Positions 189 through 63,465 of a stretch of 64,000 nucleotides of DNA are shown in pieces (position 1 is the stretch's first letter; the number at the start of each line of letters is the position of its first letter). Origin of the DNA: an uncultured Candidatus Saccharibacteria bacterium (lineage in GTDB: Bacteria > Patescibacteriota > Minisyncoccia > Phycocordibacterales > UBA9973); assembly GCA_964502615.1 (NCBI GenBank), contig CAZCXF010000001.1, positions 151,516-215,515 on the forward strand, in the 5' to 3' direction. A program made the position numbers and the translations under genes. Under the pieces are notes generated by a model. That model was given only the letters and a program-made list of their open reading frames with translations. It did no database searches and was not told the origin of the DNA.

Positions 189-2003
189 TTAATTATCTTT
201 ACTTCTCATCATTTTCAAAAAGACATCATGCGAGATGTTTATTTTAGCGTTTGCTTGCATTCTCTTCTTACCCTTTTTCTGTTTTTCTAAAAGTTTTTTC
301 TTACGACTAATATCTCCTCCTCCGACAACTTTACTTCCATGCATTAAAACATCTTTACGGAAAGCTGATACAGCTTCCGATGCGATTATTCTACCTAGAG
401 CCTTACCTTGTATTTTAAAAGCAAATTGCTGGCGAGGTATAATCTTTTGAAGTTTTTCAACTTGATTACGTGCCTCTTCTTCAACTCTACGACGAGACAC
501 TACTCTACAAAATGCAACCATCGGCTCGTCAGCAACAATAATATCAAGCCTTACAACATCAGCTTCCTTGTACTCACCTATTTCATAAGAGATAGAAGCG
601 TAACCAGAAGTAATACTCTTCATATCGTCAAAAAAGTTACGCATAAGTTCTCGTAGAGGCATATCTAAAGTTATAGATGATCTATTGTCTCCAAAATTTT
701 CAGTTGAACTTACAACAGCTTCGTGGTCATAGAAAAACGGCATGAGAACACTTGTATATATAGACGGACTAATTATCTTTACATGAACCCATGGTTCAAA
801 AACTTTTACAATATTTCCATCATCTGGAAATAGATGCGGTGAGTATATCATCTCTTCCTTACCATTTCGCAAAACAACTTTGTAAGTTATAGAAGGCATG
901 GTAACAATTAGCTCCAAATCAAACTCTCGATTTAATCTCTCTGTAATTATTTCCAGGTGGAGCATTCCCAAAAAACCACACCTAAAACCGCGTCCAAGCG
1001 TACCAGAAGACTCTTCTTCATATGAAAAGGATGAATCAGACAATCTTAGTCGTCCTAAGGCTTGTTTGAGATCTGGAAAATCATCCTGACTCTCAGGATA
1101 GACACTAGCCCATACCACAGGTCTAGGATTCATATAACCAGGTAACGCCTCTAGAGGCTTTTTAGCATAAGTTATAGTATCTCCTACAGAAGCAATACCC
1201 GGCTTTTTAATACCAGTTACAATATAGCCAATCTCTCCAATTGAAATTTTATCTCTAGGCATTTCCTCTGGCGAAAAAGTCCCAACCTCAAGAGCTATAA
1301 ACTTTTCTGCAGATACTGCAAAAAGAAGTGATTCATTCCTTCTAAATTCACCGTCTATAACTCTCACATAGACAATAACTCCTCTATGGTTGTCATATTT
1401 AAAATCAAAAACAAGTGCTCTACCAGAACCTACAACAATTTCATTTTCTTTTGGAGATGGAACTCTTTTTGTAATTTCATCTAATAAATGCGCAACGCCT
1501 TCTCCAGTTTTACCAGAAACCAAAAGTATCGTATCTGGATCAATATTAAGAAGTAAAGCAACTTCCATTTTTACTTCATCTACACGCGCAAGCGGAGAAT
1601 CTATTTTTGATATCACTGGTATTATAACCAAGCCTGAATCGCGGGCCATCTGTAGAGTCGTAAGAGTTTGTGCTTGAACTCCTTGAGTACCATCTACCAA
1701 AAGTATAGATCCTTCTACGGCCTTAAGCGCTCTTGAAACTTCATATGAAAAATCTATATGCCCAGGAGTATCAATCAAATTAAGAATATAATTTTCACCA
1801 TCAACTTTATATTCCATCCTAACAGGTTGCATCTTAATAGTAATGCCCCGTTCACGCTCTAGTTCCATCGAATCTAAAACTTGGTCTTTCATTTTACGTT
1901 TTTCAATAGTACCTGTAACTTCAAGCATTCGATCTGCAAGAGTCGATTTTCCGTGGTCTATATGGGCAATAATACTAAAATTACGTATGTGTTTTATATC
2001 CAT
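189..2003 (-). CDS. lepA: Translation elongation factor 4 (LepA), GTPase
   Basis: N-terminal 'FSIIAHIDHGKSTLADR' G-domain and full-length LepA architecture (604 aa). The plus-strand ORFs inside it are antisense artefacts. Confidence 0.95.
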   Translation of the reverse strand: MDIKHIRNFSIIAHIDHGKSTLADRMLEVTGTIEKRKMKDQVLDSMELERERGITIKMQPVRMEYKVDGENYILNLIDTPGHIDFSYEVSRALKAVEGSILLVDGTQGVQAQTLTTLQMARDSGLVIIPVISKIDSPLARVDEVKMEVALLLNIDPDTILLVSGKTGEGVAHLLDEITKRVPSPKENEIVVGSGRALVFDFKYDNHRGVIVYVRVIDGEFRRNESLLFAVSAEKFIALEVGTFSPEEMPRDKISIGEIGYIVTGIKKPGIASVGDTITYAKKPLEALPGYMNPRPVVWASVYPESQDDFPDLKQALGRLRLSDSSFSYEEESSGTLGRGFRCGFLGMLHLEIITERLNREFDLELIVTMPSITYKVVLRNGKEEMIYSPHLFPDDGNIVKVFEPWVHVKIISPSIYTSVLMPFFYDHEAVVSSTENFGDNRSSITLDMPLRELMRNFFDDMKSITSGYASISYEIGEYKEADVVRLDIIVADEPMVAFCRVVSRRRVEEEARNQVEKLQKIIPRQQFAFKIQGKALGRIIASEAVSAFRKDVLMHGSKVVGGGDISRKKKLLEKQKKGKKRMQANAKINISHDVFLKMMRSKDN

Positions 2004-21045: not shown

Positions 21046-22029
21046 TTGCTCTGCTCGCGCCGTCGCGCTGCGCAAGACTTTTTTCAAGAACTAATTTTCA
21101 TGCGCTCAAATACTAAAATCAAATCTAAGATTATTGTTGTTCTCGGTCAAACTGCCACTGGTAAGAGCGATTTTGCAGTGGAATTGGCAAAGAAAGTAGG
21201 AGGCGAGATAATCTCTGCTGATTCAAGACAAGTATATAAAGGTATGGATCTAGGTACTGGAAAAATTACAAAGAAAGAGATGCGAGGTATTCCCCACTAT
21301 TTGCTTGATGTTGCTTCTCCAAAAAAAGTTTTCTCTGTGAGTGATTTTAAGAAACTAGCTGATAAAAAAATTGAAGATATTATTGCTCGAGGTAAAACTC
21401 CGATAATCTGTGGTGGCACAGGATTCTATATAGACGCAGTCGTTGATGGGAATATTCTTCCAGAAGTACCACCAAACAAAAAACTAAGATCAACACTAGA
21501 AAAAAAATCTCCTGAGAAACTTTTAGAAATATTAAAGAAATTTGATAAAAGTCGTGCAAAAAATATCGACGCTAAAAACAAAGTTAGGCTTATCCGTGCG
21601 ATCGAGATAGCAAAGGCTCTAGGAAAAGTCCCTAAAATAAAATCACAATCAAAATACGAAGTAACAAAAATAGGCCTAACTCTACCAGATGAAATACTAA
21701 AAGATAAAATCAAAAATCGCTTACTTGCTCGAATAAAAAAGGGAATGCTTCGGGAAATTAAAAAGCTACACGAGAGTGGTGTATCTTGGAAACGCATGGA
21801 GATGCTGGGACTCGAATACCGATACGGAGCACTGTATTTGCAAAGTAAAATATCTAAGCAAGAAATGATTGAGAAATTAAACACCGAAATCTGGCACTAC
21901 GCCAAACGCCAAAAGACATGGTTTAAAAGAGATAAAAATACAAATTGGATAGATGCAAGAAATTTAAAAACTATATATCAAACTCCCTTATTTCAACATT
22001 TTTTGCTGGTTCAAAAGGTCCACCTTTAA
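21046..22029 (+). CDS. miaA: tRNA dimethylallyltransferase (MiaA)
   Basis: 'IIVVLGQTATGKSDFAVELAKKVGGEIISADSRQVYKGMDLGTGK' P-loop and DMAPP-binding region. The likely true start is the internal Met near 21100. Confidence 0.9.
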   Translation: MLCSRRRAAQDFFQELIFMRSNTKIKSKIIVVLGQTATGKSDFAVELAKKVGGEIISADSRQVYKGMDLGTGKITKKEMRGIPHYLLDVASPKKVFSVSDFKKLADKKIEDIIARGKTPIICGGTGFYIDAVVDGNILPEVPPNKKLRSTLEKKSPEKLLEILKKFDKSRAKNIDAKNKVRLIRAIEIAKALGKVPKIKSQSKYEVTKIGLTLPDEILKDKIKNRLLARIKKGMLREIKKLHESGVSWKRMEMLGLEYRYGALYLQSKISKQEMIEKLNTEIWHYAKRQKTWFKRDKNTNWIDARNLKTIYQTPLFQHFLLVQKVHL

Positions 22030-22513
22030 AGTTGGAATGAAAAAATCTAATTATCCCCCCATGTGCAACTAAAAGTATAGAATCATCTTCCGAATGATCT
22101 TTTTTTATCTTTTCCAAAAATGATAAAACTCTTTCTTTTATATCTTCTACTCGTTCACCATTATATGGCCTAAAATCATAATTTTGATCAATATATGATT
22201 GCCATAAATGTTTTCCATATTTTTCATTATGTTCACTCCATGTTTTACCATTTAAATCACCAAAGTTAACTTCTCTTAACTCAGGATGATATGATATATC
22301 AAGCTTTAATTTTTCATTTAAAATATCTGCAGTTTGTCGTGTGCGTAACATATCAGAAGAATATATCCTAGATATATTTTTAGGTATTTTCTCGATTGCT
22401 TTTTTTATATCATCTATACCATCAGAAACTAGTGCCTCATCTCTACTTTGTCCATTTATTATCTTAAGTTGATTAGATGGTACTAATCCGTGCCGAATTA
22501 TATAAATTTTCAT
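21971..22513 (-). CDS. Histidine phosphatase family protein (phosphoglycerate-mutase-like)
   Basis: N-terminal 'IYIIRHG' RHG motif and a C-terminal 'LLVAHGG' region. Confidence 0.75.
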   Translation of the reverse strand: MKIYIIRHGLVPSNQLKIINGQSRDEALVSDGIDDIKKAIEKIPKNISRIYSSDMLRTRQTADILNEKLKLDISYHPELREVNFGDLNGKTWSEHNEKYGKHLWQSYIDQNYDFRPYNGERVEDIKERVLSFLEKIKKDHSEDDSILLVAHGGIIRFFHSNFKGGPFEPAKNVEIREFDI

Positions 22514-24137: not shown

Positions 24138-25157
24138 TTAGACAAACTCAGGTTCGGGTTCAAGTGTGATCCCAAATTTTTCGTGTACTATTTTTATTAT
24201 TTCATCTTTTACTTTTGTTACATCCGCACGAGTTGCCTTACCATTGTTTACTAAAACTAGAGCGTTGTTTTTATATATGGAGATAGGGCCAAAATCTTTA
24301 CCTTTTAGTCCTGCAGTTTCAATAAGGAAACCTGCTGGTACTTTTACCAAATCCCCACTTGGAAACAAAGTAACGCTTGGATACTTTTTCTTTAGATCAC
24401 TTGCCACAGTTTTACTAACCATAGGATTTTTGAAAAATGATCCAGCATTTGATATTTCGTTTGGGTCTGGTAGTTTATTTTTCCTTATATCAATAATTGC
24501 TTCACGTATTTGAAGTAAAGTAGGATTATTTATATTTTTCTCTAAGAAATATTTTTTAACTCCTGGGTAGTTAGGTATAGATGGTGCTCGTTTTGAAAGC
24601 CTAAGAGTGACAGCTGTTATGACATATCGTCCTTTAGCCTCTCCTTTAAAGATACTATTCCTATACGAAAAACCACACTCGCTATTTGAAAGTGTTTTTA
24701 ATTTATTGTCTTTTGTATCAAAAACATCAACAGACACTAGGGTATCTTTTATCTCCTGTCCATAAGCTCCTACATTCTGTACTGGAGTTGCTCCAGTAGT
24801 ACCTGGAATAGCAGACATAGCTTCAATACCTGAGAGTCCTACTGCGACAGCACAACTAACAGCATAATCCCAACTCTCCCCTGCTCCAATTTTTAAATCA
24901 GCATATTCCTCTGTTTCGTTTACAAGTTCAAAATTACAAAATTCAATCTTTACAACAACACATTCAAATACTCCGTCAGGAAAAACCATATTTGATCCTC
25001 CACCCAATATATGTACGGGTAAATTTTTTTCTTTAGCAAAACTATAAACTTCTGGAAGTTCTTCTGGTACAGAAACTTCTATAAAATATCTAAACTTACC
25101 TCCAACTTTAAAAGTAGTGTGTTCTCTGATATCCACATGTTCCTGTACTTCAATCAT
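24138..25157 (-). CDS. murB: UDP-N-acetylenolpyruvoylglucosamine reductase (MurB)
   Basis: FAD-binding N-terminus 'EHTTFKVGGKFRYFIEV...LGGGSNMVF' and a MurB C-terminal domain. Confidence 0.9.
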   Translation of the reverse strand: MIEVQEHVDIREHTTFKVGGKFRYFIEVSVPEELPEVYSFAKEKNLPVHILGGGSNMVFPDGVFECVVVKIEFCNFELVNETEEYADLKIGAGESWDYAVSCAVAVGLSGIEAMSAIPGTTGATPVQNVGAYGQEIKDTLVSVDVFDTKDNKLKTLSNSECGFSYRNSIFKGEAKGRYVITAVTLRLSKRAPSIPNYPGVKKYFLEKNINNPTLLQIREAIIDIRKNKLPDPNEISNAGSFFKNPMVSKTVASDLKKKYPSVTLFPSGDLVKVPAGFLIETAGLKGKDFGPISIYKNNALVLVNNGKATRADVTKVKDEIIKIVHEKFGITLEPEPEFV

Positions 25158-25165
25158 ATTGCAAT

Positions 25166-25183
25166 TATATCATATATGATATA
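25166..25183. promoter_or_regulatory. Perfect 18-bp palindrome TATATCATA|TATGATATA in the divergent murB/HTH-murA promoter region
   Basis: Read directly from the sequence. It lies 42 nt upstream of the HTH-murA ATG. Confidence 0.4.
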
Positions 25184-25224
25184 TAGTGAGCAAATAATAG
25201 CCTAGTGGATTATTAGCAAACAAT

Positions 25225-26736
25225 ATGAAAAAGCAAAAGGAGCAGGAAAAAATAGGGTTTTTTATAAAAGAGCTACGTGAGAGGCGTGGGCTCACCCAAG
25301 GTGCATTTGCAAAAGAATTAGGTACATCTCAGAGTGCTGTAGCACGTATGGAAAAAGGAGACCAAAATTTCAGCACTGAACTATTATCAAAAATCAGTGA
25401 TATTCTTGAACATCAAATAGTTTCAATAAATAATTCGATAGATTTTCAAATTGTCGGTGGTAAAAAATTGCACGGTAGTATTACAACAAACTTTTCTAAA
25501 AATGGTTCAGTTGGACTTCTTTGCGCATCCCTACTAAACAAAGGCAAAACTACTCTTCATGGAATTGCTCGTATTGAAGAAGTTTATAGAGTAATTGAAA
25601 TACTAGAGAGTATTGGGGTAAGCGTTAAATGGATTGATAGAAATTCTGTCCAGATAGTTCCACCTAAAAAGCTAACTCTTGATAAAATAAACGTAGAATC
25701 TGCTATAAAAACCCGCTCTGTGATTATGCTTATTGGGCCACTTATTCATTTACTTCCGACATTCTCTATCCCCCATGCATCTGGTTGCAAGCTTGGCAAA
25801 CGCACAATTTCAGCTCATACATATGCATTGGAAGATATTGGTGTAAAAATTAAAACAACAAACTCAACTTATGAGATAGGAGCTCAAAAATTGAATCCAG
25901 CAAATATTGTAATGTATGAAGCTGGTGACACTGCATGTGAAAATATTCTTACAGCTGTTGCTAAAGTACCTGGAAAAACAACTATATCATTTGCTAGTGG
26001 TAACTATATGGTTCAAGAGATCTGTTTCTTCATTGAAAAACTAGGGATAAAAATCGAAGGCATTGGTACAAGCACTATGATAGTACATGGGGTAAAAGAT
26101 ATAGATATGGATGTAGAATACTCAAATAGTGAAGACCCTATTGAATCCATGATGTTTATATCGGCAGCTATTGCCACAGATTCAGAGTTAACTATTACAA
26201 GATGTCCCATTGATTTCTTGTCGCTTGAACTTGAAAAACTAAAGAGAATGAATCTAAAATATAAAATACTAAAAAGTTATAAATCATATAATGGACGTAC
26301 TAACTTAATAGATATAAAAATAATGCCATCAAAACTAATCGCGCTTGATGATAAAATTCATGCTAACCCTTACCCTGGAATAAACATGGATAACCTTCCC
26401 TTCTTTGTACCTATTGCAATAAAAGCAAAAGGCCAAACTATGATACATGACTGGGTGTATGAGAACAGAGCAATATACTTTACAGAATTAAATAGGCTTG
26501 GAGCAGATGTTACCCTCGCTGATCCACACAGAGTATATATTCAAGGTGGTACACAATTGAAAGGAGCTCAGGTTGTTTGCCCTCCTGCCCTTCGTCCTGC
26601 GATGATCATATTGATTGGAATGCTTGGAGCACATGGAACTTCTGTATTACGTAACGTATATATGATCAGCCGAGGATATGAGGAAATAGCTGACAGACTT
26701 AACAAAATTGGTGCAGATATTACAATACTTAAGTAA
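25225..26736 (+). CDS. murA: HTH-XRE domain fused to UDP-N-acetylglucosamine 1-carboxyvinyltransferase (MurA)
   Basis: The first 75 aa or so, 'IKELRERRGLTQGAFAKELGTSQSAVARMEKGDQNFSTELLSKISDIL', form a classic HTH_3 domain. The rest aligns to MurA, including the catalytic Cys loop 'SGCKLGKRTISAH' and the C-terminal 'RNVYMISRGYEEIADRLNKIGADITILK'. Confidence 0.85.
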   Translation: MKKQKEQEKIGFFIKELRERRGLTQGAFAKELGTSQSAVARMEKGDQNFSTELLSKISDILEHQIVSINNSIDFQIVGGKKLHGSITTNFSKNGSVGLLCASLLNKGKTTLHGIARIEEVYRVIEILESIGVSVKWIDRNSVQIVPPKKLTLDKINVESAIKTRSVIMLIGPLIHLLPTFSIPHASGCKLGKRTISAHTYALEDIGVKIKTTNSTYEIGAQKLNPANIVMYEAGDTACENILTAVAKVPGKTTISFASGNYMVQEICFFIEKLGIKIEGIGTSTMIVHGVKDIDMDVEYSNSEDPIESMMFISAAIATDSELTITRCPIDFLSLELEKLKRMNLKYKILKSYKSYNGRTNLIDIKIMPSKLIALDDKIHANPYPGINMDNLPFFVPIAIKAKGQTMIHDWVYENRAIYFTELNRLGADVTLADPHRVYIQGGTQLKGAQVVCPPALRPAMIILIGMLGAHGTSVLRNVYMISRGYEEIADRLNKIGADITILK

Positions 26737-27320
26737 TGAACAAAAAAGAGAAATTGGATGAGCTAAATAACTACTGGAAAGAACACTGCTCATGTGAATT
26801 AAAAAAAACTGCAACTCAAGCGGTTTTTGGAAACGGTAATGCAAGTAGTGATATTGTATTTATAGGTGAAGCTCCTGGGAAAAATGAGGATATTGAGGGT
26901 ATCCCATTTGTCGGAGCTGCGGGAAAGTTCTTAAATGAAATGCTTGCAGATATAGGGATGAAACGTGAAGATATCTACATAACAAATATTGTAAAATACC
27001 GACCCCCGAACAACCGTGATCCAGAACCAGAAGAAAAGGAGGCATGTAATGAATGGCTCATAAATGAACTAAAAATAATAAATCCAAAACTTATTATATT
27101 TTTAGGTAGGCACTCTATGCTACGATTTTTCCCTACAGATAAGATATCTGAAGTACATGGAAAACTTTTAATAAAAAGTATAACTGAGCTTGGCAAGAAG
27201 CAAGCCTTTCTCCCCCTTTACCATCCTGCAGCTGCACTTTATAACGGTGGTATGCGAGAAACACTAAAGAAAGATTTCAAAAAAATTCCAAAAGCCTTAG
27301 AAAAAATTAAATCTTCTTAA
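26736..27320 (+). CDS. Uracil-DNA glycosylase, family 4
   Basis: 'GEAPGKNEDIEGIPFVGAAGKFLNEML' UDG-family-4 motif. Its start codon overlaps the murA stop (TAATG). Confidence 0.8.
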   Translation: MNKKEKLDELNNYWKEHCSCELKKTATQAVFGNGNASSDIVFIGEAPGKNEDIEGIPFVGAAGKFLNEMLADIGMKREDIYITNIVKYRPPNNRDPEPEEKEACNEWLINELKIINPKLIIFLGRHSMLRFFPTDKISEVHGKLLIKSITELGKKQAFLPLYHPAAALYNGGMRETLKKDFKKIPKALEKIKSS

Positions 27321-61183: not shown

Positions 61184-62207
61184 CTGTATTTACTAAAACT
61201 TCTTGAAAATTTTCAAAATCATCTAATATAACTCCTGTGCCACGAGCAACTGCTGTGAGAGGATCCTCAGCAATATAAATAGGTATTTTAAGTGAACTTT
61301 TCAAAAGAATATCTAAACCTCGCAATAGAGCTCCGCCTCCAGATAAAACTAACCCTCTGTGCATAATATCGGAAAGTAATTCTGGTGGTGTAGTCTCTAA
61401 AACTTCTTTGATACCATCAACCAAACTAATCACAGATGGCATTATAGCTTCGCGAACATCAGCGTCAGTAATAATAACCTGACGTGGTAAACCAGTCACC
61501 AAATCCCTGCCTCTGACTTCTGCTTCCATTGGCTCACCTTCTATAACTTGCCCAATTGCGATTTTTACATTTTCAGCAGTTTTTTCACCTATTAGTAATT
61601 TGAATTCATCCTTCATGTAGTTAACAATACTTGAATTCAAAAGATCTCCTGCTATTTTTAAATTTTTTGATCTAACAACTCCGGAGAGTGATATTACAGC
61701 GATATCTGTTGTTCCTCCTCCAATATCAACGATAACTGATCCGACAGCGTCTTTAACAGGAAGTCGTATGCCAACAGAAGCTGCCATTGGTTCTTCCACA
61801 ATGTAAACTTCGCGAGCCCCAGCAGAACGAGCTGCATCTTCTACCGCTCTAATTTCAACGTTAGTTATACCAGTAGGAACACCTACCAATACACGTGGTC
61901 GAATAAATTTTTTAGACATTTTTTCAGCTTTACCGATTAGGTATGAAAGCATTTCTTCTGTTACTTCAAAATCAGAAATAACTCCATCAACTATTGGTCT
62001 AACAGCGCGAATATGCCCCGGAGTTCGTCCTAACATTTGTTTCGCCTCAGCTCCTACGGCTACAATCTGTCCAGTCTTTTGATTTACAACCACCACCGAT
62101 GGCTCATTGATAACGATGCCATGACCTTTCAAATAAACCAGAGTATTAGCTGTGCCTAAATCTATTCCAATATCGTTTGAAAATGTATTGTAAAGTTTTT
62201 TAAACAT
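61161..62207 (-). CDS. mreB: Rod shape-determining protein MreB (actin homolog)
   Basis: 'IGIDLGTANTLVY', 'VIVDIGGGTTDIAVIS' and 'GLVLSGGGALLRGLD' actin-fold motifs. Confidence 0.95.
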   Translation of the reverse strand: MFKKLYNTFSNDIGIDLGTANTLVYLKGHGIVINEPSVVVVNQKTGQIVAVGAEAKQMLGRTPGHIRAVRPIVDGVISDFEVTEEMLSYLIGKAEKMSKKFIRPRVLVGVPTGITNVEIRAVEDAARSAGAREVYIVEEPMAASVGIRLPVKDAVGSVIVDIGGGTTDIAVISLSGVVRSKNLKIAGDLLNSSIVNYMKDEFKLLIGEKTAENVKIAIGQVIEGEPMEAEVRGRDLVTGLPRQVIITDADVREAIMPSVISLVDGIKEVLETTPPELLSDIMHRGLVLSGGGALLRGLDILLKSSLKIPIYIAEDPLTAVARGTGVILDDFENFQEVLVNTDDTSTPR

Positions 62208-63465
62208 TTTTTAATTCATTTAATAATTGTTCTTTTGGAACAATTTTTCCAGTCTCTTCTGTACGTTTTTTTATTTCATATCCACCGGAAGCATTACTAC
62301 GTTTTGATACAACCACTCTATAAGGTATTCCAATCAAATCTGAATCAGCAAACTTTTCTCCTGCACTAACATCGGTGCGATCATCAAATAAAACTTCAAT
62401 ATTATTTTCTAATAAATATTTATAAATATTTTCTGCTTCAGATTTGGTGTTGTCTTCATTGCCCAGTAGTAGTAAGTGTACTTTAAAAGGAGCAATAGAT
62501 TCGGGCCATATAATGCCTTTATCATCAGATAGAACCTCAACAACCGTACCCATTAACCTTCCTGGCCCTATACCATAAGAACCCATAAATACTGATTTGG
62601 ATTCACCTGTATCGGTTTGATACTTTAATTCAAGAGCGTCAGAGAAACGAGTACCTAATGTGAATATGTTTCCAACTTCTACTGCTCTATTTTCAACCAA
62701 AGTATCTTTTGAAAGTCCTAGGCTTTCAATAACTTCATCATTATAAACCTCTTTGTTTATAGCTATACCTTTATTTTCATCTACATAAATAGTATCTTCC
62801 CCTGCACCCGTTAATGTTTGAAATTCATGAGAAAACTTTGAGAACATACCTCCAGAAGCAAAGGTTAGATAAGTTAGGTGACCAATACCAACTCTTTTAA
62901 AAACATTTTTATAAGCTTCTTTAGCTTTTTCATAAAACTCATTATGCTCATTTTCATCTCTTGAAAAAGAATATAGATCTTTCATTATAAATTCCCTAGT
63001 ACGCATTATCCCACTCTTAGCACGAGTTTCATTTCTAAATTTAGTTTGAAATTGATAAAGAGAAAAAGGCAAATCGCGATAAGAATTTACAAATCCTTTT
63101 AACATTTTAGTTATTGGAGCCTCGTGAGTCACAGCAAGACCTAACTCAGTCTCACTTTTTAATTTAGTCTTAAACCAGACATCTACCTGTTCATCACTCC
63201 ATTGATTTGTAGGTTCCCATGTTGAACGCTCTTGGAGTGCTGTCATTACTATCTCTTGTCCACCAATTGCATTCATTTCTTCACGAATAATATTCTGTAT
63301 CTTATTTAAAACACGAAGACCTAGTGGTAAATATGCATAAACCCCAGCCATTTCCTTGTTTATAAAGCCAGCTTTTATCAGAAGTTCAGCATTAAGAGAT
63401 ACTTCATCTGCTGGAGACTCCTTCTTAGTTTTTGTAAATAGTTGTGATTGCTTCATACCAATCAT
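62200..63465 (-). CDS. proS: Prolyl-tRNA synthetase, bacterial-type but lacking the INS editing domain (421 aa)
   Basis: N-terminal 'SQLFTKTKKESPADEVSLNAELLIKAGFI', motif 2 'FRNETRAKSGIMRTREFIMKD', motif 3 region 'GSYGIGPGRLMGTVVE'. The motif 2-to-3 spacing is too short for an INS domain. Confidence 0.9.
   Translation of the reverse strand: MIGMKQSQLFTKTKKESPADEVSLNAELLIKAGFINKEMAGVYAYLPLGLRVLNKIQNIIREEMNAIGGQEIVMTALQERSTWEPTNQWSDEQVDVWFKTKLKSETELGLAVTHEAPITKMLKGFVNSYRDLPFSLYQFQTKFRNETRAKSGIMRTREFIMKDLYSFSRDENEHNEFYEKAKEAYKNVFKRVGIGHLTYLTFASGGMFSKFSHEFQTLTGAGEDTIYVDENKGIAINKEVYNDEVIESLGLSKDTLVENRAVEVGNIFTLGTRFSDALELKYQTDTGESKSVFMGSYGIGPGRLMGTVVEVLSDDKGIIWPESIAPFKVHLLLLGNEDNTKSEAENIYKYLLENNIEVLFDDRTDVSAGEKFADSDLIGIPYRVVVSKRSNASGGYEIKKRTEETGKIVPKEQLLNELKNV

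Follow-up and report, generated by a model that had tools for sequence, protein, structure and literature searches.

A gene in a 64,000-nucleotide stretch of DNA from an uncultured Candidatus Saccharibacteria bacterium (NCBI GenBank assembly GCA_964502615.1, contig CAZCXF010000001.1, positions 151,516 to 215,515 of the forward strand) encodes a MurA that carries a DNA-binding helix-turn-helix (HTH) domain at its N-terminus, and its promoter contains a perfect 18-bp palindrome, TATATCATATATGATATA, hereafter the operator. MurA catalyses the first committed step of peptidoglycan precursor synthesis and is the target of fosfomycin. Comparisons to related genomes reveal that HTH and operator are found together and are missing together. 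On this basis we consider it likely that the fusion protein is a 'trigger enzyme' with two functions: besides being an active MurA, it would repress its own promoter and probably also that of the divergently transcribed murB. Autoregulation by way of a dimeric HTH had been put forward in the original prediction, made from the sequence of the stretch, and it is the reading that the co-occurrence of operator and HTH best supports. The whole stretch is referred to below as the window, and positions are those of the window.

The original prediction described an XRE-type HTH followed by a full MurA with the catalytic Cys loop, and searches of Pfam and NCBIfam recovered both domains (feature coordinates are collected in Table 1). 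Pfam HTH_3 matches residues 14-61 with 49.2 bits (cutoff 23; E 5.6e-13), EPSP_synthase (PF00275) matches residues 78-492 over profile positions 3-417 of 417 (E 4.7e-39), and the Cys loop is present as GCKLGKR. The NCBIfam MurA subfamily NF006873 is matched over residues 74-501 with 302 bits, above its cutoff of 297; the score against the TIGR01072 equivalog, 291.7, lies below the cutoff of 392.7, and the protein is therefore a member of a divergent MurA subfamily. The HTH region also matches NCBIfam NF006015, 'anaerobic benzoate catabolism transcriptional regulator' (E 1.7e-07), and antitoxin families, PezA among them.

The position and perfect symmetry of the palindrome within the 67-bp region between the divergent murB and murA genes (25158..25224) were confirmed. 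No further copy of TATATCATATATGATATA occurs in the 64-kb window, even at three mismatches. However, at least one perfect 18-bp palindrome is present in 42% of dinucleotide-preserving shuffles of the window, and the window itself holds a second one, AAATATTTATAAATATTT, at 62414..62431 within a 421-aa open reading frame (ORF; 62200..63465, minus strand), which is taken as a chance AT-rich palindrome without intergenic context. Statistics of the window are thus insufficient, and the significance of the operator rests therefore on related sequences.

In order to obtain these, species-representative genomes of GTDB were scanned, which gave 559 stretches encoding a relative, of which the best 80 loci were kept. 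The fusion is found in 66 of these; in the other 14 the gene encodes a MurA, 74-82% identical, that starts directly at the MurA domain. None of the 14 has a separate HTH ORF, and the difference is therefore one of domain presence versus absence and not of a split gene. In a collection of 5.8 billion proteins all 120 best matches possess both HTH and EPSP_synthase; those with a named source derive from metagenome bins of Candidatus Nomurabacteria or Paceibacteria, members of the candidate phyla radiation (CPR). A sequencing error that joined two frames, which the original prediction had named as the danger should relatives encode the HTH as a small ORF of its own, is ruled out by the fused state of these 120 relatives and of the 66 loci. 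Mean pairwise identity over the 66 fusion orthologues is 77.8% for the HTH, 77.7% for the MurA domain and 65.5% for the linker. The equality of the first two values indicates that the HTH, like the enzyme, is under selection.

The same loci were searched for the operator using the pattern T[AC]TC[AG]TAT[AG]TGA[TG]A with one mismatch allowed. Exactly one match per ~7.5 kb, always upstream and at the promoter, was found in 65 of the 66 fusion loci; the sole exception (L039) lies on a contig that retains just 18 nt upstream of the gene. The 14 HTH-less loci contain no match anywhere. The expectation that the palindrome would be conserved upstream of orthologs was thus borne out, and it holds for those orthologs that possess the HTH. 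The upstream neighbor varies (divergent murB in 32 loci, tRNA-Leu in 13 and other genes in 21), and since the operator is kept throughout, the motif follows the fusion gene and not the neighbor. It also remains at the promoter in three loci in which a gene of 191-192 aa separates promoter and start codon (L052, L057 and L061), and in four in which a 120-130-bp element with terminal inverted repeats is present (L006, L014, L026 and L058).

In a neighbor-joining tree of the MurA domain, constructed without support values, genes lacking the HTH branch from within the fusions at several points, which suggests repeated joint loss of HTH and operator. In five HTH-less loci (L067, L072, L073, L076 and L080) only a few nucleotides separate murA from the 3' end of the tRNA gene before it, which suggests that both are transcribed together and that this replaces the operator-controlled promoter.

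Two symmetric forms of the operator, TATATC...GATATA and TATCTC...GAGATA, are found, along with a mixed form. A recognition helix of the type TSQS-S.P-RME is paired with G in the right arm of the operator in 27 of 28 loci, and the type TSQS-AV[AV]-RME with T in 29 of 37. That the helix variant tracks the operator variant is suggestive only.

The association can also be approached from the opposite direction, by starting with the operator. A search of metagenome contigs for the exact 18-mer matched at least 120 contigs. An HTH of this subfamily, oriented downstream of the operator and within 800 nt, is encoded by 48 of the 120 matches listed; as background, just one such HTH was found in 425 kb of sequence lying more than 1.5 kb from the operator, an enrichment of more than 100-fold. 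Among the 48 listed contigs with an HTH, 26 carry HTH-MurA fusions, some on contigs of 64-68% GC, and the remainder encode mostly pairs of a Gp49/HigB-like toxin and an XRE antitoxin, or stand-alone XRE proteins. Because the operator recovers these antitoxins and stand-alone proteins as well, its pairing with the HTH is a property of the HTH subfamily that does not depend on MurA. The HTH and operator probably entered the murA locus as an autoregulatory cassette of the antitoxin type. Toxin-antitoxin pairs preceded by the TATATCATATATGATATA palindrome were seen at metagenome loci L116, L117, L146, L180, L181, L199 and L204; in eight cases the toxin ORF (MIYNEY...) is in frame with the ATG contained in the palindrome, although the N-terminal extensions are of differing length.

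More distant full-length fusions were sought among 1.84 billion cluster representatives. The protein P0122, 52% identical to that of the window, represents a 246-member cluster from cultured species of Nonomuraea (Actinomycetota). Three Nonomuraea species carry ATCTCATATGTGAGAT upstream of the annotated start, at 28-29 nt in two and at 62 nt in the third; the species are of 70-72% GC, the flanks have diverged and there is one operator copy per 11-13 kb. Since the operator recurs in genomes of 62-72% GC, an AT-rich background does not explain it. The caution that AT-rich DNA yields palindromes by chance, raised in the original prediction, therefore holds for the window and fails as an explanation of the motif. 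The Nonomuraea genes always have the same neighbors, upstream a formyltransferase/enoyl-CoA-hydratase fusion gene and downstream a phage-type integrase, and presumably represent an extra murA paralogue; that they are 52% identical to the CPR proteins suggests that they were transferred horizontally between phyla that are very distant.

A further seven representatives, 29-41% identical (P0130, P0131, P0137, P0140, P0146, P0223 and P0263), retain the HTH recognition helix and lack 3-8 of the nine residues for catalysis or substrate binding in MurA that are described below. The operator stands at the own or operon promoter in six of these seven pseudo-MurA fusions. At three of their loci (L081, L212 and L213) the pseudo-MurA gene is divergent from an operon containing a bona fide murA of 438-452 aa plus murB or a Mur ligase, a Mur ligase gene or ddl is next, and the operator lies 16-28 nt before the pseudo-MurA start. 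The operator is at -21 and -35 for P0223 and P0263, respectively, and for P0140 it is found at the promoter of a NUDIX - NTP-transferase - HTH-pseudoMurA operon. These catalytically dead paralogues are apparent dedicated regulators within mur clusters. One protein, P0125 (45% identical), shows the converse state: its active site is intact, its HTH has decayed past detection by Pfam and it is without operator.

In a trigger enzyme a single polypeptide contains both a competent enzyme domain and one that binds DNA, and the protein of the window appears to be so built. When aligned to MurA proteins of solved structure and to 88 homologues, it keeps all of nine catalytic or substrate-binding residues: K92, N93, R164, C188, G191, R193, D304, R415 and R457, which we take to be equivalent to K22, N23, R91, C115, G118, R120, D305, R371 and R397 of E. 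coli MurA. An AlphaFold2 model of the protein has a mean predicted local distance difference test score (pLDDT) of 94.7 and a predicted TM score (pTM) of 0.86. In this model the HTH is a four-helix bundle spanning residues 3-61 (helices 3-20, 25-32, 36-43 and 51-61; pLDDT 92-96). The model can be superposed on MurA in its liganded state: compared by Foldseek to E. coli MurA (1uae), the MurA body gives a TM score of 0.94, normalised to the target, and a root-mean-square deviation of 2.0. The top 43 PDB matches are MurA throughout, in keeping with the two-domain inside-out alpha/beta barrel fold, and no PDB match spanned HTH and MurA domains together. Intact residues thus point to a MurA domain that is catalytically competent, and identity places the fusion in the housekeeping MurA lineage, because the HTH-less orthologues are 74-82% identical to it.

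If the MurA-like domain were merely a ligand sensor, and the real MurA encoded elsewhere, then the fusion would be a pure regulator. The seven pseudo-MurA fusions, at least three of which sit beside a separate bona fide murA, provide a precedent; the TIGR01072 score is below cutoff, and the window makes visible just 64 kb of the genome. Yet the nine key residues, the Cys loop included, are intact, NF006873 scores above its cutoff, and close HTH-less orthologues occupy the same type of locus in sister species. In addition, the gene is paired with murB, and no second MurA was detected in the 64-kb window. We consider a pure regulator unlikely.

The promoter itself suggests how the fusion protein may act. 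The operator fills the 17-nt spacer between the -35 and -10 hexamers of the fusion gene and shares 2 nt with the start of the -10. In orthologues TTGCAA or TTGCAT is kept at the -35 position, and TATAAT, TAAAAT or TATACT at the -10 position. When the loci are aligned on the motif, the 18-mer has an information content of ~2 bits per column, compared to ~0.2 in the sequence beyond the -35 and -10 on either side, and the spacer is better conserved than are the two hexamers. Towards murB, 8 nt separate the palindrome from the start codon. On the minus strand the sequence is TATAAT-TGCAAT-ATG, with the murB ATG 7 nt past the hexamer, which suggests that the murB transcript is leaderless in the window; the promoter scan did not report this putative -10 because its -35 is weak.

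This arrangement raises the possibility that the palindrome is a conserved and possibly bidirectional promoter core, with -10-like boxes back to back, to which no protein binds, the role of the HTH being unrelated. Its right arm does overlap the -10, its left arm overlaps the minus-strand TATAAT, and AT-rich palindromes of this length do arise by chance in the window. However, the left arm is invariant also in the absence of divergent transcription, where a tRNA-Leu or a co-directional gene is upstream, and in Nonomuraea. The bases of the spacer are more conserved than the -35 and -10 hexamers, the motif is lost wherever the HTH is lost although the genes concerned still need a promoter, and in unrelated gene contexts the motif predicts the HTH subfamily. 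An element of the promoter alone is, for these reasons, improbable.

Some further features of these promoters may be noted. The leader of the fusion gene in the window is 37 nt long and contains no obvious Shine-Dalgarno sequence. In ~36 GTDB loci, about half of the fusions (for example L003, L004, L008, L009 and L028), and in Nonomuraea locus L208, the start codon is only 7-8 nt past the -10 and the operator 14-mer begins at -25 to -30, which implies leaderless mRNAs. Where tRNA-Leu is the neighbor, a DnaA-box-like sequence, TTATCCACA, perfect or with one mismatch, lies 2-25 nt upstream of the fusion -35 (L022, L027, L040, L042, L045, L046, L049, L051, L054, L055, L059 and L070), and ATATCCACA occurs within the first codons of the divergent murB, at 25129-25137 in the window and in many other loci. 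The DnaA-box-like element may be a second regulatory site. The 120-130-bp insert has in L014 the ends ACTCCCGTTAGAGATG...CTATCTCTAACGGGATG, and is missing from L020, which encodes a protein with the same N-terminus. It resembles a miniature inverted-repeat transposable element (MITE) located at the start codon, with the ATG duplicated, and would provide a leaderless mRNA with a leader.

For the trigger enzyme we envisage the following mechanism. The C-terminal 430 residues would serve as the working MurA of the cell, and the N-terminal HTH would bind the palindrome, presumably in dimeric form, each 9-bp half-site taking up one HTH. Protein bound on the spacer and the -10 would exclude RNA polymerase, so that synthesis of MurA would be limited by the amount of the protein already present, a negative autoregulation. 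As the likely -10 of murB, which is divergent and apparently leaderless, is overlapped by the operator, both initial steps of the pathway would be repressed together, along with the gene downstream of murA, which encodes a member of the uracil-DNA glycosylase (UDG) superfamily; control of murB by the fusion protein is predicted from this overlap. We favor repression over activation because of the position of the operator, the optimal 17-bp spacer and the kinship to antitoxins of the HigA/XRE type, which autorepress.

The same position would also suit an activator, or a spacer binder like MerR that stimulates the promoter or switches it between states, since it is exactly within the -35/-10 spacer that MerR-type activators bind too. 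Activation of that type relies on over-long spacers of 19-20 bp, and here the spacer is optimal and both hexamers are good; furthermore, the same pair of HTH and operator serves the antitoxins of Gp49/HigB-type modules, classically an autorepressing class. An activating role is accordingly very unlikely.

The least probable explanation, to which we give hardly any credence, is a relic or mobile promoter cassette derived from a toxin-antitoxin system, placed before murA with a role in conflict or addiction and possibly linked to zeta-type toxins, whose product inhibits MurA: the operator and HTH subfamily do recur in Gp49-XRE pairs, the HTH matches antitoxin families including PezA, a kinase gene with faint similarity to Zeta_toxin lies between operator and HTH-murA in L052 and L061, and the Nonomuraea copies adjoin an integrase, but no toxin-like gene flanks the gene of the window, the Zeta_toxin similarity is under the Pfam threshold, and the fusion is conserved vertically across 66 species in an enzyme of an essential pathway with equal selection on both domains. 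The kinase in question matches Zeta_toxin with E 0.0035, and only AAA_33 passes the threshold.

None of these four alternatives fits the co-occurrence data as well as does the trigger enzyme. Several observations nevertheless weigh against it. DNA binding, dimerisation and repression are all predicted from sequence, and the model is at its least confident in the linker. As MurA is usually a monomer, dimerisation would need the HTH domains or DNA binding. The palindrome is not statistically unusual within the AT-rich window alone, and part of its conservation could be due to promoter function, because the right arm overlaps the -10 and, where murB is divergent, the left arm overlaps a second -10. 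The covariation between helix and operator is uncorrected for shared ancestry. Regulation by the HTH is dispensable, since 14 related species manage without it. A total of 72 of the 120 operator matches listed are without a detectable HTH nearby; these may represent chance in AT-rich DNA, truncated contigs or other uses. Finally, P0137, which lies on a 2.7-kb contig, has no clear palindrome and is the exception among the seven pseudo-MurA fusions.

The trigger-enzyme reading admits an extension, which we offer as a tentative possibility. The pseudo-enzyme paralogues suggest that the MurA fold can act as a sensor, and activity of the fusion protein might be modulated by UDP-N-acetylglucosamine (UDP-GlcNAc), phosphoenolpyruvate (PEP) or UDP-N-acetylmuramic acid (UDP-MurNAc) via the open/closed transition of MurA. 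The fold would then be a built-in metabolite sensor: ligand binding would alter the seating of the two HTHs on the palindrome, and precursor levels would feed back on the transcription of murA and murB. The dead HTH-pseudoMurA paralogues would be dedicated UDP-sugar-sensing regulators derived from the enzyme, and the whole a new family of transcription factors that sense cell-wall precursors, spread across CPR/Patescibacteria and Actinomycetota (Nonomuraea) and maybe exchanged horizontally.

Table 1. Positions of the fusion gene, its control region and neighboring genes in the window, and of related features in other loci (locus coordinates).
Feature	Position	Strand	Remarks
HTH-murA fusion gene	25225..26736	+	503 aa plus stop; ORF list, Pfam, NCBIfam
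XRE/Cro-C1 type HTH	25264..25407	+	aa 14-61; Pfam HTH_3, model helices
Predicted recognition helix QSAVARME	25330..25353	+	aa 36-43
Linker, HTH to MurA	25408..25440	+	aa 62-72; block pLDDT ~68, no secondary structure in model
MurA catalytic domain	25441..26733	+	aa 73-503; NF006873, alignment to solved MurA structures
Catalytic Cys188 codon	25786..25788	+	In GCKLGKR loop
Operator, perfect 18-bp palindrome TATATCATATATGATATA	25166..25183	.	Sequence; ortholog conservation
-35 TTGCAA of HTH-murA promoter	25159..25164	+	Promoter consensus scan
-10 TATAGT of HTH-murA promoter	25182..25187	+	Promoter consensus scan
Putative -10 TATAAT of murB	25164..25169	-	Inferred from sequence; overlaps operator left arm
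murB (UDP-N-acetylenolpyruvoylglucosamine reductase)	24138..25157	-	Pfam MurB_C 2.8e-25, FAD_binding_4 5.7e-18
Uracil-DNA glycosylase superfamily gene	26736..27320	+	Pfam UDG 3.3e-35
Intervening gene, operon with HTH-murA	L052 2292-2867; L061 710-1288		AAA_33 P-loop kinase
Intervening gene, operon with HTH-murA	L057 2409-2987		His_Phos_1 phosphatase
120-130-bp insert between promoter/operator and murA ATG	L006 2880-3000; L014 2860-3000; L026 2845-3000; L058 1670-1783; L064 ~1790-1870		
Nonomuraea HTH-MurA genes	L087 6595-7605; L208 7632-8657; L210 7586-8677		

In the window murB is followed by alr and tRNA-Leu. Downstream of the fusion, the ATG of the UDG gene overlaps the murA stop codon (TAATG, 26734-26738), and because of this overlap the two genes are probably co-transcribed, under the same promoter and operator. 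The overlap also implies translational coupling of murA and the UDG gene, which puts a DNA-repair gene under the fusion promoter. A His_Phos_1 gene, of the family seen in the operon of L057, is found near by (21971..22513, minus strand).

Several known systems resemble the one proposed here. BirA of E. coli likewise joins an N-terminal HTH-type domain to an active metabolic enzyme and acts at a palindromic operator between divergent promoters of its own pathway; however, its HTH is winged, it dimerises on biotinyl-AMP and it regulates the bio operon and not its own gene, whereas HTH-MurA has an XRE/Cro-type HTH and its predicted target is its own promoter. PutA, a classic trigger enzyme, is an enzyme with an appended DNA-binding domain that autoregulates a divergent intergenic control region, but that domain is a ribbon-helix-helix, the switch is one of redox state and membrane association, and the pathway is catabolic. 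Regulators of the BzdR type consist of an N-terminal XRE HTH, a linker and a domain of enzyme fold (shikimate-kinase-like), and are the best analogue for the dead HTH-pseudoMurA paralogues; in BzdR the enzyme-like domain is only a sensor, in contrast to the protein of the window, which keeps a complete MurA active site.

The HTH subfamily itself (T-x-Q-S-x-[IV]-x-R-[IM]-E), together with TATATCATATATGATATA at the promoter, is shared with HigA-type XRE antitoxins that accompany Gp49/HigB-like toxins. Such antitoxins are small, stand-alone proteins with a toxin partner, unlike the HTH of the window, which is fused to a 430-aa essential enzyme. Assignment of the fusion as the antitoxin of a type II toxin-antitoxin system was rejected, its neighbors being murB and the UDG-family gene, with no toxin. 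MurA is known to be controlled by ClpCP/ReoM-dependent proteolysis in Firmicutes and through feedback inhibition by UDP-MurNAc, both of which similarly limit flux at the first committed step of peptidoglycan synthesis. These controls are post-translational or allosteric, whereas the control proposed for HTH-MurA would be transcriptional and built into the enzyme. In the full-text literature outside subscription journals we found neither an HTH-MurA fusion nor its operator described; in databases the annotation of the fusion proteins is limited to MurA or 'helix-turn-helix domain-containing protein'.

An enzyme able to read the promoter of its own gene would give MurA an in-built homeostat at the level of transcription. 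The fusion is found in genome-reduced CPR bacteria, which have very few regulators, and its family shows a path from an active enzyme-regulator to a pseudo-enzyme regulator inside mur clusters. The consensus of the operator is sufficiently sharp for regulons to be defined computationally, and the presence of fusion and operator in culturable Nonomuraea makes the idea testable at the bench.

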